From positions 450,001 through 482,000 of the forward strand of contig NZ_CP017260.1 in the NCBI RefSeq assembly GCF_001735745.1: a stretch of 32,000 bases of DNA, read 5' to 3'. The notes under the pieces were generated by a model. That model worked only from the letters and a program-made list of their open reading frames with translations, had not been told where the DNA came from and made no database searches. Origin of the DNA: Formosa sp. Hel1_33_131 (GTDB taxonomy: Bacteria; Bacteroidota; Bacteroidia; Flavobacteriales; Flavobacteriaceae). This document shows positions 22,168-30,128 of this stretch, piece after piece. The translations under genes were made by a program, and so were the position numbers. How positions within the stretch are numbered: position 1 is the first letter of the stretch; each line of letters begins with the position of its first letter.

Positions 22168-22989
22168 ATGACTTTCACAAAAACCACCGAACAGGATTCG
22201 CATTACAACCATCTCGAAAAAATGTCTATTAAGGATGTTTTAAACGTGATCAATCAAGAAGATCAGAGCGTTCCTACGGCGGTTGCATCAGCAGTCCCAC
22301 AAATTGAAGCTCTGGTAGCACAGATTGTAAACAACCTGAAAAACGGCGGACGTTTGTTTTATTTGGGTGCTGGAACCAGTGGACGCCTCGGAATTTTGGA
22401 TGCTTCTGAATGTCCTCCCACTTTTGGAGTCCCACATGAAATGGTGATTGGACTGATTGCAGGTGGTGATAGTGCCATCCGTAAAGCGGTTGAATTTGCC
22501 GAAGACGATACCCAACAAGGCTGGAAGGATTTACAAGCATATAGTATCTCCACAAACGATGTGGTGGTTGGTATTGCTGCTTCTGGCACAACGCCCTATG
22601 TGATTGCGGCCTTGAAAGCCTGTCAGCAAGCCAACATCAGCACGGGATGTATGACGTGCAACGAGGGCAGTCCCCTCGCCCAAGTATCGGATTACCCAAT
22701 TGAAGTGGTGGTAGGTCCCGAAGTATTAACGGGCAGCTCACGAATGAAAGCCGGCACGGCACAAAAATTAGTATTGAATATGATCACCACCACCACAATG
22801 ATTCAGCTTGGAAAGGTAAAAGGCAACAAAATGGTGGACATGCAACTGAACAATGATAAACTAGTCGCCCGTGGCGTCAAGATGTTGATGGATCAGTTGA
22901 ACCTCTCAGAAACCGAAGCACAACAGTTGTTAGACACTCATAAAAACGTACGTACCGCATTAAAAAAATATACCAATGGAAACGCCTAG
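22168..22989 (+). CDS. murQ: N-acetylmuramic acid 6-phosphate etherase MurQ
   Basis: SIS domain LGAGTSGRLGILDASECPPTFG and GSSRMKAGTAQK. N-terminal TTE aligns with the conserved MurQ N-terminus, so the ATG near 22168 is preferred. Confidence 0.92.
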   Translation: MTFTKTTEQDSHYNHLEKMSIKDVLNVINQEDQSVPTAVASAVPQIEALVAQIVNNLKNGGRLFYLGAGTSGRLGILDASECPPTFGVPHEMVIGLIAGGDSAIRKAVEFAEDDTQQGWKDLQAYSISTNDVVVGIAASGTTPYVIAALKACQQANISTGCMTCNEGSPLAQVSDYPIEVVVGPEVLTGSSRMKAGTAQKLVLNMITTTTMIQLGKVKGNKMVDMQLNNDKLVARGVKMLMDQLNLSETEAQQLLDTHKNVRTALKKYTNGNA

Positions 22990-23209
22990 AACCAATAAAG
23001 ACCTTTTAGTGGGTGGACTTAAAACAATGGGGGTGACTCTCTTCTTATTATTTTTAGGGCCTTTTATTTTACATGCTGGATTTTCCAATCCCGATAAACC
23101 GCTTTACATCCCTTTGGTGATTGCGGGTGTTTTGACTTGTGGAGCGGCGATTTACTTTGGTTTTAAAGGGATCCGCACAATTATGGACAGCCTTTTTGGG
23201 CGGAAATAA
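22976..23209 (+). CDS. Small two-TM membrane protein (DUF6095-like); its 3' end is the first repeat copy
   Basis: 77 aa. Two hydrophobic helices (GVTLFLLFLGPFILHAGF and LVIAGVLTCGAAIYFGF). Overlaps the murQ end by 14 nt. Confidence 0.6.
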   Translation: METPRTNKDLLVGGLKTMGVTLFLLFLGPFILHAGFSNPDKPLYIPLVIAGVLTCGAAIYFGFKGIRTIMDSLFGRK

Positions 23210-23277
23210 TTTCTTTTTATTATATTTACAACGGACTTAGACCTCAAATCTGATTCTTCATTTTAACCAATTCAACT
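23162..23277 (+). repeat. Repeat module copy C1 (gene 3' end + TTTG/TATATTTA promoter-like pair + invariant core)
   Basis: About 82% identity over ~115 nt to 25685-25796. A 27-nt identical block GACTTAGACCTCAAATCTGATTCTTCA lies at 23234-23260. Confidence 0.85.
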
Positions 23278-23297
23278 TTTTAGTAAGCTATTAAAAT

Positions 23298-23313
23298 ACT
23301 GTATTTATACAGT
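23298..23313. promoter_or_regulatory. 16-nt perfect palindrome ACTGTATttATACAGT (candidate operator)
   Basis: 7+7 perfect inverted repeat with a 2-nt centre, 38 nt downstream of the C1 core. Confidence 0.3.
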
Positions 23314-23449
23314 GGTGTATGGGTATGCGGAGTTTTTAAAAATTGATTGAGCAACGAAGTATACATACTAATGAATTATAAACTTTAGTTTTTAGTGTTA
23401 AAAATGAATGAAATGAAAAAACATTTAAATACGTTTTATAAAACAGAAA

Positions 23450-23488
23450 GTTCAACAATACACGCCAATTTGGGATGTATTGTTGAAC
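23450..23488. repeat. 39-nt near-perfect palindrome / 13-bp hairpin
   Basis: GTTCAACAATACA / TGTATTGTTGAAC arms with a 13-nt loop that is itself partly palindromic (CCAAtTTGG). Confidence 0.8.
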
Positions 23489-23511
23489 GAAACACTAAAT
23501 ATAATGGAAAT

Positions 23512-23549
23512 ATGCACACCTAAAGGTGTGTATATACACTAGTTCTACG
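23512..23549 (+). repeat. Hairpin + TATACacTAG-GTTCTACG boundary element (X0)
   Basis: ATGCACACC taaa GGTGTGTAT forms a 9-bp stem. GTTCTACG (23542-23549) is the exact reverse complement of 24698-24705. Confidence 0.55.
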
Positions 23550-23568
23550 TCATTAAAAAAATCAAAGA

Positions 23569-24666
23569 ATGAAAAAAATATTAAAAACAATAAAATATTC
23601 GATTATAACCATCGTGGTAATAGTTTTAGTATTTATCGCAATTGTTTTTATAAAAAGCCCTGGAGTAGCTGACATTGTTAGAAATAATGATGGAAATATT
23701 CCTAAAAATGCTATTTCTACTATAGTAACAATTCCTGTTGGCGAAATACAGCAGACTATTATTATTAGAGGAGAAGATAATACTAAACCTGTTTTGTTAT
23801 TCTTACATGGAGGTCCGGGGACACCTGAATTTCCATTTATGAAAAATATAGGATTAAATTTAGAGCAAGAATTTGTAGTAGCGTATTGGGAACAACGAGG
23901 AGCGGGAAAATCTTATTTTAAAGATATACCTGTAGAAAGTATGTCATTACCACAAATGATATCTGATGCTGTTGAAGTCTCAGAATATTTACAAATCCAA
24001 TTTAAGCAAAATAAAATTTATTTGATGGGGCATTCTTGGGGCTCTTTTTTAGGTACTATGTTAGCTTATCAGCACCCTAATCATTTTCACTCTTACATTG
24101 GCATTGGGCAAGTTTCTCACCAATATTATGGAGAAAAAATCTCTTTGAATTGGATTAAAAAAATGGCTAAAAACCTTAAAAATAAATCAGATGTTGAGAT
24201 TATAAATACACTAGTATTTCCTGACTCTTTGGCGGACAACCAAACATGGATGGACTATTTGATACCTCAAAGAGATTTTGTCAATAAATATGGTGGTGGT
24301 TTTAGCCACAAAAACTATAATTTGACAAATCTTTATAAAACCATTCTCTTTGATAGTCCTGAATATACTTTTCGAAATAAAATAAATTATTTAGAGGGAG
24401 CTCTATTTTCACCTATGCATCTTTGGGATGATGTTATTCAAACAAATTTAATACAAGAAGTTGATAGTATCTCTATTCCAGTTCATATCATTCAAGGTAT
24501 TCATGACTATCAGACACCTCTGAAACCTGCTAAAGATTTTTTTACTCAATTAAAAGCACCAGAGAAAAATTTTTATCAGTTCGATCATTCAGCTCATTTT
24601 CCATTTATAGACGAACCCAATAAATTTAACAAAATAATAGAAAAAATAGTCTTAGGTGAAAATTGA
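23569..24666 (+). CDS. Membrane-anchored alpha/beta hydrolase (proline iminopeptidase-like, S33-type)
   Basis: N-terminal TM helix, oxyanion HGGPG, nucleophile elbow GHSWGS, and a C-terminal His region (DHSAHFPF). Confidence 0.85.
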   Translation: MKKILKTIKYSIITIVVIVLVFIAIVFIKSPGVADIVRNNDGNIPKNAISTIVTIPVGEIQQTIIIRGEDNTKPVLLFLHGGPGTPEFPFMKNIGLNLEQEFVVAYWEQRGAGKSYFKDIPVESMSLPQMISDAVEVSEYLQIQFKQNKIYLMGHSWGSFLGTMLAYQHPNHFHSYIGIGQVSHQYYGEKISLNWIKKMAKNLKNKSDVEIINTLVFPDSLADNQTWMDYLIPQRDFVNKYGGGFSHKNYNLTNLYKTILFDSPEYTFRNKINYLEGALFSPMHLWDDVIQTNLIQEVDSISIPVHIIQGIHDYQTPLKPAKDFFTQLKAPEKNFYQFDHSAHFPFIDEPNKFNKIIEKIVLGEN

Positions 24667-24697
24667 GAAAAAAGAAATAAAAATGAATTTAAAACGC

Positions 24698-24830
24698 CGT
24701 AGAACAAGGTATAAAAATAATAGCGGTTTAATCACTAAAACAAAAGTAATGAAACATAAAAAAGGTCTGTGTTTAACCGAAAAGTTAGTGCGTGTAAATC
24801 CGCTACTATTCTTATACTAGACCGTTAGCA
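24698..24830 (+). repeat. Imperfect inverted-repeat element X-A (attC-like architecture)
   Basis: CGTAGAAC, then arm GTATAAAAATAATAGCGGTTTA (24709-24730), a 64-nt spacer, arm TAAATCCGCTACTATTCTTATACT (24795-24818), then TAGACC-GTTAGCA (24824-24830). Confidence 0.65.
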
Positions 24831-24861
24831 AACTTATAGAATAAATTAAAAATCACTTCCT

Positions 24862-25548
24862 ATGAAAAATATATTATTATTTATATTGTTACTTTCCTCT
24901 CATATTGTTATTAGTCAGAACCTCATAGAGTTCAGAACAGCATCACTCGTAGATGGTGATTACTCACTCGAGGGAGACGTGTATCTGGAACTGTTTGACG
25001 ATAATTCCCTCAACCTCAGATTTGATACAAATTATTTGACTCAGAGTAACGTATTTGATGTTCATGTGTTTCTAACTAATAATAATGACTATACACAACC
25101 TATTGACACATCTGGGATGTTACTAGTGGAAAACATAGGAACCATTAGTGGCCTAAATTACTCATCAGGCGCTATGACATTTAACTTACCTTCAGGTGTA
25201 GGCATCAATGATTATGACCATATTGTCTTTGTTTGCATCCAATTCGGCCAGTTGCATTGGGGAGATGGAACCTTTGGCTCAACATCTCTAGGTATTATCA
25301 AAAACGATTTTGGAAGCAAACTTTTAGCACACCCTAATCCAACTGATGGTAATTTCTCGATTGACTTGGGAGCTGTTTATGAATCTGTAGAAATTATTCT
25401 TTCTGATATTAATGGCAAGTTAATTCGTTCAGAGTCATTTCGTCAAGAGCAACTTGTTAATATACCATTAAAAGAACCGTCTGGCATATATTTAATAACA
25501 GTTCAAGCAGATAATAGAAAGGCATCAATAAAATTGATAAAAGAATAA
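24862..25548 (+). CDS. Secreted DM13-like domain protein with T9SS C-terminal sorting domain
   Basis: Signal peptide. DM13-like segment (GDVYLELFDDNSLNLRF...FDVHVFL). C-terminal Por secretion tail pattern (HPNPTDGNFSIDL...SGIYLITVQADNRKASIKLIKE). Confidence 0.65.
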   Translation: MKNILLFILLLSSHIVISQNLIEFRTASLVDGDYSLEGDVYLELFDDNSLNLRFDTNYLTQSNVFDVHVFLTNNNDYTQPIDTSGMLLVENIGTISGLNYSSGAMTFNLPSGVGINDYDHIVFVCIQFGQLHWGDGTFGSTSLGIIKNDFGSKLLAHPNPTDGNFSIDLGAVYESVEIILSDINGKLIRSESFRQEQLVNIPLKEPSGIYLITVQADNRKASIKLIKE

Positions 25549-25554
25549 ACGATT

Positions 25555-25607
25555 TGCCAACAATGTATAAGCGGCATTAAAACGACCGCTTATACTAACC
25601 GTCAAAC
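25555..25607 (+). repeat. Inverted-repeat element X-B (short homologue of X-A)
   Basis: TGCCAAC-aat-GTATAAGCGG (25565-25574), 11-nt loop, CCGCTTATAC (25586-25595), then TAACCGTCAAAC. It aligns with X-A apart from internal deletions. Confidence 0.65.
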
Positions 25608-25684
25608 TACGCAAAATCTAAAGGTATTCCATGACTTAAACAAATAGAACTTTATAATTTTAAATCTAGAATACGCAGCAAGAC

Positions 25685-25732
25685 TTTAAAGGCATCCGCA
25701 CCATTAAGTAGAGTCTCTTTGGTCAGAAATAA
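25685..25732 (+). pseudogene. Decayed duplicate of the last 16 codons of the 22976-23209 gene
   Basis: Reads FKGIRTIK*SLFGQK*, compared with FKGIRTIMDSLFGRK* at 23162-23209. There is no upstream ORF. Confidence 0.7.
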
Positions 25733-25796
25733 TTTTTTTATTATCTTTACAATAGACTTAGACCTCAAATCTGATTCTTCAAAAAACCAATTCAAC
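25685..25796 (+). repeat. Repeat module copy C2
   Basis: Collinear with C1. TTTG (25718-25721), TATCTTTA (25742-25749), identical 27-mer at 25755-25781, and AACCAATTCAAC at the end. Confidence 0.85.
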
Positions 25797-25916
25797 CAAA
25801 AGTATTTTAAGATTATTATGCTATTTAGACGCCTCTAAATGGGCTTGTTCGGAAATAATCCTATTTAAGCAGGGTGTGATTTGTAGTCGTTAGCATTCAT
25901 ATTAAAAAATAGAACT

Positions 25917-26486
25917 ATGAAATACAATTCTTCTGAAATGATGTGTTTAGACATTTATCTTTCTTCTTTGTCAGATAAAGAACATGACAAAATAAAACAT
26001 CAAATTAAATCGTCTAAAGCTAAAATATCCCCGTTATCAAGTTGGGATATCTATAGGCCAAATTATTTTAAAACACTTGACAAGCAGAGAAAAAAAAGAG
26101 ATCTTAAGGTTGTAAATTCATTCTTTAAAAAAGAAAAATGGAGTAATGATTTTCAGAGTGTTTTTAAAAATCAAGAGTTTGAAGCACTCGTAATTACCGA
26201 TTTAAACCAAAGAATTATTTGGGTTAATGAAGGATTTACTAAAATGACAGGCTATTCAAAAGATTTTGCCATAAACAAAACACCCCATTTTTTACAGGGA
26301 GAAAACACCTGCTCATCTGTTAAGAAAAAAATTAGAACTAAATTAAAAAAATCACATCCATTTAAGGAGGTGATCACAAACTACAGAAAAGATAATTCAG
26401 TCTATAATTGCGAAGTGAGAATTATCCCTTTGTATTGTAATGAAAAGGTAACTCACTTTTTAGCTTTAGAAAAAGAAGTCATCTAA
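25917..26486 (+). CDS. Stand-alone PAS domain protein, LOV-like but lacking the adduct-forming Cys
   Basis: Residues ~90-189 align with LOV domains (VITD...GYS...NKTPHFLQG...NYRKD). The N-terminal ~90 aa are unassigned. Confidence 0.7.
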   Translation: MKYNSSEMMCLDIYLSSLSDKEHDKIKHQIKSSKAKISPLSSWDIYRPNYFKTLDKQRKKRDLKVVNSFFKKEKWSNDFQSVFKNQEFEALVITDLNQRIIWVNEGFTKMTGYSKDFAINKTPHFLQGENTCSSVKKKIRTKLKKSHPFKEVITNYRKDNSVYNCEVRIIPLYCNEKVTHFLALEKEVI

Positions 26487-26809: not shown

Positions 26810-26841
26810 ACGTATTAAATGCAATGTTCCTGAGGTTTTTA

Positions 26842-26937
26842 GCGTGAGGGATTGCAGTTGAAAAGCCCACGGTCATAGCGCGGCGTTAGCCTGTGTTGTG
26901 GCGAGGACTTGTAGCGGAAAGCCCGGCTTTGAACGCC
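26842..26937. repeat. GC-rich tandem degenerate repeat / structured element between convergent genes
   Basis: Two ~33-nt units, GCGTGAGGGATTGCAGTTGAAAAGCCCACGG and GTGGCGAGGACTTGTAGCGGAAAGCCCGGC. The second is enclosed by the stem GGCGTTAGCC / GGCTttgAACGCC. Confidence 0.6.
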
Positions 26938-30040: not shown

Positions 30041-30128
30041 TTTTTTGGTCGTATTCATTTTTTGACTACTTTTATGGCGGAATAAGACCTCAAATCTGAT
30101 TCTTCAATAACCTATATAAACTAGTAAG
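30041..30128 (+). repeat. Repeat module copy C3 (most diverged)
   Basis: TTTG (30044-30047), TACTTTTA (30067-30074), exact 22-mer at 30085-30106, then AACC...AAC-TAGTAAG as in C1. Confidence 0.7.

Follow-up and report, generated by a model that had tools for sequence, protein, structure and literature searches.

The locus considered here raises the question of whether genes of Formosa sp. Hel1_33_131 are gathered as mobile cassettes in a region that contains no intI, and which enzyme would move them. It lies in a 32-kb stretch of the 2,735,158-bp genome (termed the window, whose numbering is used for all coordinates not given for another locus) and comprises an alpha/beta hydrolase gene and a gene for a DM13-like protein sorted by the type IX secretion system (T9SS), each followed by an imperfect inverted repeat. 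The window proteins DnaA (AOR27468), the hydrolase (AOR27484) and the DM13/T9SS protein (FORMB_04240) are identified by exact protein matches, and the hydrolase assignment of the open reading frame (ORF) 23569-24666 is a Pfam match. An earlier reading made from the sequence alone had proposed a non-canonical integron-like cassette array without intI, and this proposal is borne out by cassette exchange among strains, by a rule of complementarity at the cassette edges and by elements that are confined to the array. With a probability of roughly 0.8, the segment 23510-25607 is an integron-type array of two promoterless cassettes behind an orphan attI-like site, the likely catalyst being a XerA-like recombinase acting in trans. 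It represents a variant that is widespread in Bacteroidota and is marked by a XerA-like recombinase, attC hairpins for the most part free of bulges, and an attI of hairpin type.

Cassette exchange and boundaries in the Formosa array

Dozens of metagenome contigs of near-identical strains, retrieved by exact matches to the hydrolase, to DM13 and to the DUF6095 protein encoded upstream, show that the interval between DUF6095 and DM13 (the first slot of the array) holds at least eight different cassettes, all joined at the same G|TT. The contents of this slot are the hydrolase, a DUF6864 gene with a 95-aa ORF, a 181-aa protein, a WD40 protein with a 200-aa protein, a 214-aa protein, and the types found in L067, L069 and L070 (L numbers denote related loci and contigs fetched for comparison). 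In every strain the left edge of the variation is ...ACACTA, or a close variant, followed by GTT (23541/23542 in the window), and the right rejoining point is G|TTAGCA at 24824. The right junction of L018 reads GTTGGCA, the perfect complement of the TGCCAAC of the DM13 cassette. On both sides the flanks show little or no difference among strains; in the DM13 protein and the whole of 25520-25946 the window does not differ from any of the 17 contigs compared with it, and the DM13 cassette is present in nearly all sampled strains (it is missing from L067). In L016 the 200-aa cassette comes after the WD40 cassette, and in L020 DM13 comes directly after it, with the junction GTTAG both times; these two contexts are cassette shuffling. 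In sister strains further elements bound different ORFs, with the first slot varying at a fixed G|TT. The widest cassette diversity occurs in strains with an intact attI hairpin. Because at least eight cassettes share one G|TT beside a lineage-specific hairpin that is seen next to no recombinase, the insertions most likely took place at this very site in this population.

The start of each cassette is complementary to the R'' end of its own attC. The exact 8-nt reverse complement that the sequence-only reading had seen around the hydrolase unit (GTTCTACG, 23542-23549, and CGTAGAAC, 24698-24705) is present, as are all the other motifs it had placed (hairpin, inverted repeats and heptamers), and the rule extends at 8/8 to 10/10 bases to further copies in Formosa strains and four other genera, with more than 30 cassettes from several genera conforming. 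The start/R'' pairs are GTTAGGCA / TGCCTAAC in L011, L064 and L016, the last of which also has GTTATGTA / TACATAAC, GTTACCAC / GTGGTAAC in L018, and GTTATGGGC / GCCCATAAC in L067. Five Lacinutrix cassettes match at 8/8 to 10/10, and in L033 and L027 such pairs follow one another in chains. In an automated walk, 26 cassettes (417-1537 nt) could be closed and the predicted R'' 8-mer was recovered in 14 of the 16 loci whose flank measured 1.5 kb or more (chance at most 0.09 per locus), and a chance match of the five free bases is expected about once in 1000 per cassette. By analogy with integrons, such complementarity would be the signature of circular cassettes inserted and excised by a cut at G|TT. 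The heptamers of the window (GTAGAAC, TGCCAAC, GTTAGCA) do not fit the RYYYAAC/GTTRRRY consensus, as had been noted from the sequence, and this misfit does not extend to several sister cassettes that do fit, e.g. GCCTAAC.

The elements that close the cassettes form a recognizable family. A covariance model termed R2, built from the bottom strands of attC sites of Lacinutrix, Algoriphagus and L067 only and including no window sequences, finds site 1 at 24698-24830 (74.8 bits, E 3e-19, minus or bottom strand) and site 2 at 25554-25607 (25.2 bits, E 5e-5), and no other convincing match in the 32-kb window. The R2 matches make the window site types homologous to the attC of arrays that start after a 375-aa XerA-like recombinase gene. 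Over 51 loci the model finds 57 sites, each in array orientation, which is the orientation of the recombinase gene where one is present. The arm pattern is also confined to the array (two matches in 32 kb versus 0.07 expected), and pattern count and covariance model together rule out that the elements are scattered repeats. The model R1, based on the conserved 62-nt attC type described below, finds arrays in other taxa and misses both window sites because it is dominated by primary sequence; it was superseded by R2. A scan for geometry alone (AAC, hairpin, GTT) was discarded as non-specific, since with about 10 matches per strand per 32 kb geometry alone is no evidence. No Rfam 15 family matches the elements in the region or in the five related loci scanned.

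The attC-type hairpins of the units are 50-195 nt long and in direct orientation, and the two co-oriented sites of the window lie ~0.7 kb apart. AAC and GTT occur in all verified sites except for the terminal GTC at 25601. In predicted folds, extrahelical bases are missing from 19 of the 22 verified attC sites, and both window sites are among these, having arms of equal length with no bulge. With DNA parameters, all 22 sites fold more stably as the bottom strand, by a mean of 3.3 kcal/mol. The source of the asymmetry is that A.C mismatches of the top strand become G.T pairs in the bottom strand and that the R and L boxes are separated by spacers of different length on the two sides (3 versus 6 nt and 3 versus 5 nt in the window sites, 5 versus 7 nt in the 62-nt type). 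In the attC of the WD40 cassette (L016 9181-9276; L020 294-390), which differs from most others, the R''-L'' arm is bulged at two single bases and so resembles the classical form, where this arm carries two or three extrahelical bases (PMC2727003).

The hairpin ahead of the hydrolase, read from the sequence alone as a flank of the unit, is present and has a larger role as the conserved attI-like insertion site. The window form GAAATATGCACACC-TAAA-GGTGTGTATATAC-ACTA-GTT shares its layout with the sites directly behind recombinase genes and is clearly related to, for example, GAAATATGCGTAC-TA-GTACGCATATAC-AATT-GTT of L089. As the site at the head of the array where the different first cassettes are joined, it corresponds to an attI, as do the sites beside recombinase genes in other taxa, with a sequence and architecture unlike known attI. 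Upstream of it lie 233 nt of non-coding DNA and then the DUF6095 gene, and as these stand where the recombinase gene would be, the site of the window is an orphan. For this platform no similarity to other loci was detected, and RNAalifold gave conserved hairpins and no compensatory base changes that would indicate a structured RNA. A strong 13-bp hairpin (GTTCAACAATACA...TGTATTGTTGAAC, 23450-23488) lies 20 nt upstream of the attI hairpin and is kept in almost all strains.

Table 1. Coordinates of the array, its flanks and the small gene beside the recombinase in related loci
Feature	Positions	Strand	Description
Direct repeat copy A	23162..23277	+	3' end of DUF6095 gene (ORF 22976-23209) plus ~70 nt beyond
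Non-coding platform 5' of insertion site	23278..23509	+	Position of the recombinase gene in other genera
Orphan attI-like site	23510..23544	+	Hairpin ATATGCACACC-TAAA-GGTGTGTATAT (23510-23535), ACACTA, putative crossover triplet G|TT 23542-23544
Cassette 1	23542..24824	+	Start GTTCTACG (23542-23549), 27-nt leader, alpha/beta hydrolase ORF 23569-24666, attC
Cassette 1 attC-like site	24698..24830	+	R'' CGTAGAAC 24698-24705, spacer AAG, L'' 24709-24726, 73-nt variable part, L' 24800-24817 (L''/L' an 18-nt imperfect inverted repeat), spacer TAGACC, R' G|TTAGCA 24824-24830
Cassette 2	24824..25601	+	Start GTTAGCA, 38-nt leader, DM13-like/T9SS-sorted protein ORF 24862-25548, attC
Cassette 2 short attC-like site	25555..25607	+	R'' TGCCAAC 25555-25561, spacer AAT, L'' GTATAAGCGG 25565-25574, 11-nt loop, L' CCGCTTATAC 25586-25595, spacer TAACC, R' GTCAAAC 25601-25607
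77-nt segment past last attC	25608..25684	+	Invariant among strains
Direct repeat copy B	25685..25797	+	82-94% identity to copy A
GTTAGCA ahead of PAS ORF	25889..25895	+	Unsupported as cassette boundary
~125-aa gene, L052	4074-4463	-	
~125-aa gene, L072	7563-7934	-	
~125-aa gene, L074	7557-7937	-	
~125-aa gene, L086	3340-3729	-	
~125-aa gene, L144	5560-5934	-	

A direct repeat of ~115 nt (82-94% identity, Table 1), overlooked in the sequence-only reading, brackets the insertion site and both cassettes. Copy B holds a dead 3' end of DUF6095 (FKGIRTIK-stop versus FKGIRTIMDSLFGRK-stop), and the repeat may go back either to integration of the attI platform in a Campbell-type event or to a duplication. 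An att-type duplication was considered and rejected, the 47-nt core of the repeat being a promoter/leader-like motif with a third copy elsewhere. This motif (..TTTAYRRYGGAMTWAGACCTCAAATCTGATTCTTCA) is found at 23214-23260, 25735-25781 and 30060-30106, each time 5' of a plus-strand gene or array, and again in L067 at ~9733. Copy A contains a possible Bacteroidetes-type promoter, judged by its motifs (TTTG at 23195-23198 and TATATTTA at 23221-23228). The leaders inside the cassettes, only 27 and 38 nt, leave no room for a promoter of Bacteroidetes type with its leader; transcription of the cassettes therefore probably starts upstream, and the promoter-like repeat at 23195-23228 may be the source. 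The 77-nt segment 25608-25684 may represent what once adjoined the empty insertion site on its right.

Downstream, the GTTAGCA ahead of the PAS ORF had been taken for a further cassette boundary and is unsupported as such. It has no hairpin, it lies in the segment 25520-25946 that does not vary between the window and the 17 contigs, and the bare heptamer carries no weight alone because it occurs at chance frequency in the window (3 seen, 2.99 expected). The PAS gene itself is rejected as a third cassette, there being no attC-like hairpin from its stop codon to the next gene and the GTTAGCA being invariant among strains. The divergent contig L067 lacks both DM13 and PAS, yet is also rearranged further downstream. 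A search of the cargo for defence systems gave no meaningful PADLOC matches. At 26837-26932 (+), in GC-rich sequence after the PLDc_N ORF, the Flavo-1 RNA family matches below its threshold (26.3 bits against a gathering score of 42), and it does so in L016 too.

Related arrays and the adjoining recombinase

A search pattern derived from the attC of two sister cassettes and run over a species-representative genome set gives 41 loci, nearly all in Bacteroidota (Flavobacteriales, Cytophagales, Sphingobacteriales, Balneolaceae, Ignavibacteria). The common 62-nt site is xxxxxAAC-AAnAC-CTATACGCAATGCCC-TTC-GGGACACTGCGCATAG-CCAAACC-GTTAG, in which the outer bases are variable and one pair covaries. 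In 3 of the 41 loci a tyrosine recombinase gene lies directly 5' of the array and is co-oriented with it. Arrays directly following a 375-aa tyrosine recombinase gene are found in Lacinutrix, Maribacter, Zeaxanthinibacter, Algoriphagus and ~50 metagenome contigs, with a spacer of 3-6 nt between hairpin and GTT (4 nt in most), and the order recombinase, hairpin, GTT, array is seen in L052, L033, L027 and L072. The complete genome of Lacinutrix sp. Bg11-31 (CP025118; recombinase gene at L072 8001-9131) has the recombinase, hairpin, AATT, GTT and five cassettes in succession, and two of its attC sites (nos. 2 and 4, ACC-GTATAAAAATAAT...ATTCTTATAC-ATAAAC-GTT) are of the same type as the first element of the window. 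A metagenome scan with the recombinase yields 69 loci, and nearly all of those that include the 3' end of the gene have the hairpin, "AC", a 4-nt spacer and GTT 10-15 nt past the stop codon. Where contigs share an identical hairpin, their sequences part immediately behind GTT, and several contigs stop precisely there, as would be expected of assembly breaks at a hypervariable junction.

The recombinase passes the NF040815 model (XerA/integron integrase; 243.6 bits, cutoff 220) and fails TIGR02249 (integron integrase; 212.6 bits, cutoff 265). It is colinear with P. abyssi XerA, with an extra N-terminal stretch of ~105 aa, and aligns with V. cholerae IntIA (VchIntIA) in two pieces, with 26 residues opposite 68 of IntIA. 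The enzyme is without the ~42-aa segment defining integron integrases, and the missing stretch is the region of the IntI-specific additional domain. According to MacDonald et al. 2006, this domain is reportedly the part that contacts the extrahelical bases. It is the accepted marker of integron integrases (PMC8352920). The term "intI-independent" used in the sequence-only reading needs refinement in that related arrays adjoin a XerA-like tyrosine recombinase without the IntI-specific domain. The family is 75-90% identical across genera (90% between Lacinutrix and Maribacter arcticus), is present twice in some Maribacter genomes, has variable upstream neighbors and adjoins other integrases, for which reasons the gene is regarded as a horizontally mobile module rather than a core gene and could consequently be supplied in trans.

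A cassette is a mobile unit of one ORF (sometimes a few) and a 3' attC-like imperfect palindrome with the arrangement R''(..AAC)-L''-variable-L'-R'(GTT..). In the proposed mechanism, drawn by analogy with integrons, a tyrosine recombinase would cut at G|TT and exchange the folded bottom strand of the attC of a circular cassette with the GTT following the attI hairpin. New cassettes would therefore enter at position 1, and each R'' would as a consequence stay complementary to the 5' edge of its own cassette. The catalyst is probably the 375-aa XerA-like recombinase and not a classical IntI, and in Formosa it would have to be supplied in trans, whether encoded at another place in the genome or carried by a mobile element.

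Further features of these loci accompany the recombinase and its arrays. A gene for a ~125-aa protein with a weak zinc-ribbon (YacG-like) N terminus is divergent from and directly upstream of the recombinase gene in every full locus inspected (Table 1); the protein may be an accessory factor. AttC-like sites in the same orientation also occur upstream of the recombinase gene in L105 (4-134) and L082 (66-220), where the gene either lies inside or after another array or belongs to tandem modules. In Maribacter flavus (L052 5690-7043) three tandem copies of one 451-bp cassette precede a cassette for a 108-aa membrane protein; the 451-bp cassette has no convincing plus-strand ORF and, on its minus strand, an 80-aa ORF starting with GTG. 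A tRNA-like 3' fragment (..GGGTTCGATTCCCATCCCCCCCA, L033 1440-1520) is part of the first Zeaxanthinibacter cassette. The conserved 62-nt attC type is matched exactly in the IMG/VR contigs L149 and L150, and the recombinase was found on no IMG/VR viral contig. The same type is present in L037, L046 and L055, binned as Hyphobacterium, Pelagibacter and a gammaproteobacterium, which could be due to mis-binning or to cassette transfer across phyla.

Weighing of the explanations

A number of observations weigh against the reading given above. No tyrosine recombinase is present in the 32-kb window or within up to 10 kb downstream in sister contigs; tblastn finds none within -23.5 kb or +6.4 kb of the array and no remnant in the window with the Maribacter enzyme and IntI1 as queries. 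Two lists of the 120 best recombinase homologues each include no Formosa entry, and none of the 69 metagenome loci pairs a hairpin of the window type with a recombinase. The contigs L144 and L086, considered as Formosa contigs carrying the recombinase, are not from Formosa. The terminal R' of the cassette 2 attC is degenerate, with GTC in place of GTT at 25601, and some strains still carry cassettes behind an attI hairpin with a degenerate right arm. The edge match is 6/7 for DM13 in most strains and 7/8 for L067 B, and L012 breaks the rule with the start GTTATGGGCA and the attC R'' TGCCTAAC. The cassette concerned, that of the 181-aa protein at ~9201 of L012, begins with GTTATGGGCA as does the L067 cassette, instead of with GTTAGGCA, and its start may have arisen as a hybrid, by crossing-over a few bases right of GTT. 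The strain differences could have spread by homologous recombination via the conserved flanks and not by ongoing site-specific recombination. No recombination was directly observed, and all the chemistry is by analogy with integrons.

One rival is a fossil array, in which the insertions would be old or would have taken place in other hosts, site-specific recombination would no longer be active in Formosa, and the present differences would be due solely to allele replacement or homologous recombination through the conserved flanks, in the manner of a flexible genomic island of the replacement type. This explanation is doubtful, though several features agree with it: no recombinase lies beside the array, the near-identical flanks offer ample homology for exchange, the final attC ends in a degenerate GTC and the attI hairpin is eroded in some strains. 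The platform block 23331-23415 is far more diverged among strains than its surroundings and re-assorts independently of cassette content, which also fits. It is difficult to reconcile with the eight or more first cassettes at a single G|TT beside a lineage-specific hairpin unseen next to any recombinase, with the WD40 cassette in two array contexts, and with the finding that most cassette diversity is where the hairpin is intact. Plain intergenic hairpins, i.e. terminators or repetitive extragenic palindromic (REP)-like repeats with coincidental edge complementarity, can hardly be the explanation. No T-run follows the stems, a terminator scan is negative at both sites, only two copies exist in 32 kb and both are in the array, 8-10-base complementarity holds in more than 30 cassettes of several genera, and cassettes are replaced exactly at the elements; all this outweighs the position of both hairpin-forming elements directly past stop codons and the ~10 matches per strand in 32 kb of the unspecific geometry-only scan. 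The terminator/REP reading is refuted by the strain breakpoints, the Lacinutrix cassettes, the automated walk and the R2 model.

A classical integron, with classical attC sites made and used by a classical IntI bearing the additional domain, is improbable. Every array with a neighboring recombinase has the XerA-like enzyme without the IntI segment, and tblastn with an IntI1 query detects no other IntI-like gene in L001-L061 or the window. The overall attC geometry is nevertheless that of classical sites (AAC...GTT, unpaired spacers, variable top, bottom-strand bias, cassettes of 0.4-1.5 kb); a few sites, e.g. the WD40 attC, have two bulged bases on the R''-L'' arm, whereas 19 of 22 have no extrahelical base, and IntI recombination survives the loss of these bases in Vibrio tests (PMC2727003). 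The window heptamers depart from RYYYAAC/GTTRRRY, and complete integrons are nearly absent from Bacteroidetes according to a survey (PMC9024848). There is likewise only a slim chance that the enzyme is a housekeeping dimer resolvase with a dif-like hairpin, the "cassettes" exploiting Xer in the manner of integrative mobile elements exploiting Xer (IMEX) or pdif modules. The recombinase is indeed closest to XerA and 75-90% identical across genera, and the site beside the gene is a palindrome with ~10-nt arms. The action of Xer on a folded single-stranded hairpin has a precedent in the CTX phage. The crossover GTT, however, lies 3-6 nt outside the palindrome and is not central, the units carry 50-195-nt direct-orientation hairpins of attC type and not 28-bp XerC/XerD sites, and the gene resembles a mobile module in its 90% Lacinutrix/Maribacter identity, its two copies in some genomes and its variable neighbors.

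Beyond the preferred reading, an integron-type array behind an orphan attI-like site with a XerA-like recombinase in trans, there is a broader proposal for which the odds are about even, namely that Bacteroidota, and marine Flavobacteriaceae especially, harbor a large undescribed lineage of integron-like gene capture run by a XerA-like recombinase. The recombinase of this lineage would never have acquired, or would have lost, the IntI domain, its attC sites would have no extrahelical bases and its hairpin attI would follow the gene. The Formosa array would be an orphan attI still loaded in trans in a bloom-forming population, and the lineage could be a sister or ancestral-like form of integrons or a convergent one. 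The system is found in dozens of genera and many metagenome contigs. If the proposal is true, the step from Xer-type recombinases to integron integrases would become directly testable through an intermediate or parallel form, and a large pool of cassettes in ocean Flavobacteriia may go unrecorded since tools keyed to IntI would miss the recombinase. It would also account for a locus that varies among strains of Formosa, which is a key degrader of polysaccharides from algal blooms, and provide synthetic biology with a second and possibly simpler single-strand recombination system.

Comparison with known systems

The IntegronFinder 2 survey lists for Bacteroidetes only In0 elements plus one complete integron, in Salinibacter (PMC9024848). 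A tyrosine-recombinase survey notes only that the IntI insertion "is not fully conserved" in an integron-like subgroup. A search of the full-text literature, of incomplete coverage, found no description of such arrays in Flavobacteriia, and an earlier description is possible. Integrons are defined by IntI with an extra domain that reads the extrahelical attC bases, and here the same cassette logic is seen without the domain or the bases. In common with class 1 and Vibrio chromosomal integrons are the promoterless cassettes of one or a few ORFs ending in an R''(..AAC)-L''...L'-R'(GTT..) palindrome, the apparent G|TT crossover with R'' matching its own 5' edge, the single entry site at the head of the array, the better fold of the bottom strand, the unpaired central spacer and cargo that is mostly of unknown function. 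In a clear difference from them, the linked recombinase is without the ~42-aa IntI domain and stays under the cutoff for integron integrases, extrahelical bases are missing from most attC sites, the asymmetry of the strands coming from G.T versus A.C pairs and unequal spacers, and the insertion site is a hairpin or palindrome directly 3' of the recombinase gene and co-oriented with the cassettes. The window, moreover, has no recombinase.

With two attC-like sites on the same strand and no integrase, the window resembles a CALIN, a group of clustered attC sites with no integron integrase, a class it would join only if its sites count as attC. CALINs are regarded as integrons that have decayed, whereas the Formosa array keeps a head site with cassette exchange in the population. 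In Treponema denticola-type integrons intI is in the same orientation as the cassettes. The arrangement here is similar, the recombinase lying upstream of the cassettes and co-oriented, although the enzymes of that type carry the IntI additional domain. The pdif modules of Acinetobacter are flanked by 28-bp double-stranded XerC/XerD sites in alternating orientation. These modules and the CTX phage, which uses a folded single-stranded hairpin, are likewise modules or elements moved by Xer-family recombinases; unlike those of pdif modules and IMEX, the sites here are co-oriented hairpins of 53-195 nt with cassette-specific AAC/GTT edges. The enzyme is closest to and colinear with P. abyssi XerA and passes NF040815, which relates it to archaeal XerA and archaeal integrons (PMC9668308). 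Archaeal XerA resolves chromosome dimers at dif, and the archaeal integrons so far reported were defined with IntI-type enzymes, whereas the recombinase described here has an additional N-terminal ~105 aa and is tied to cassette arrays.

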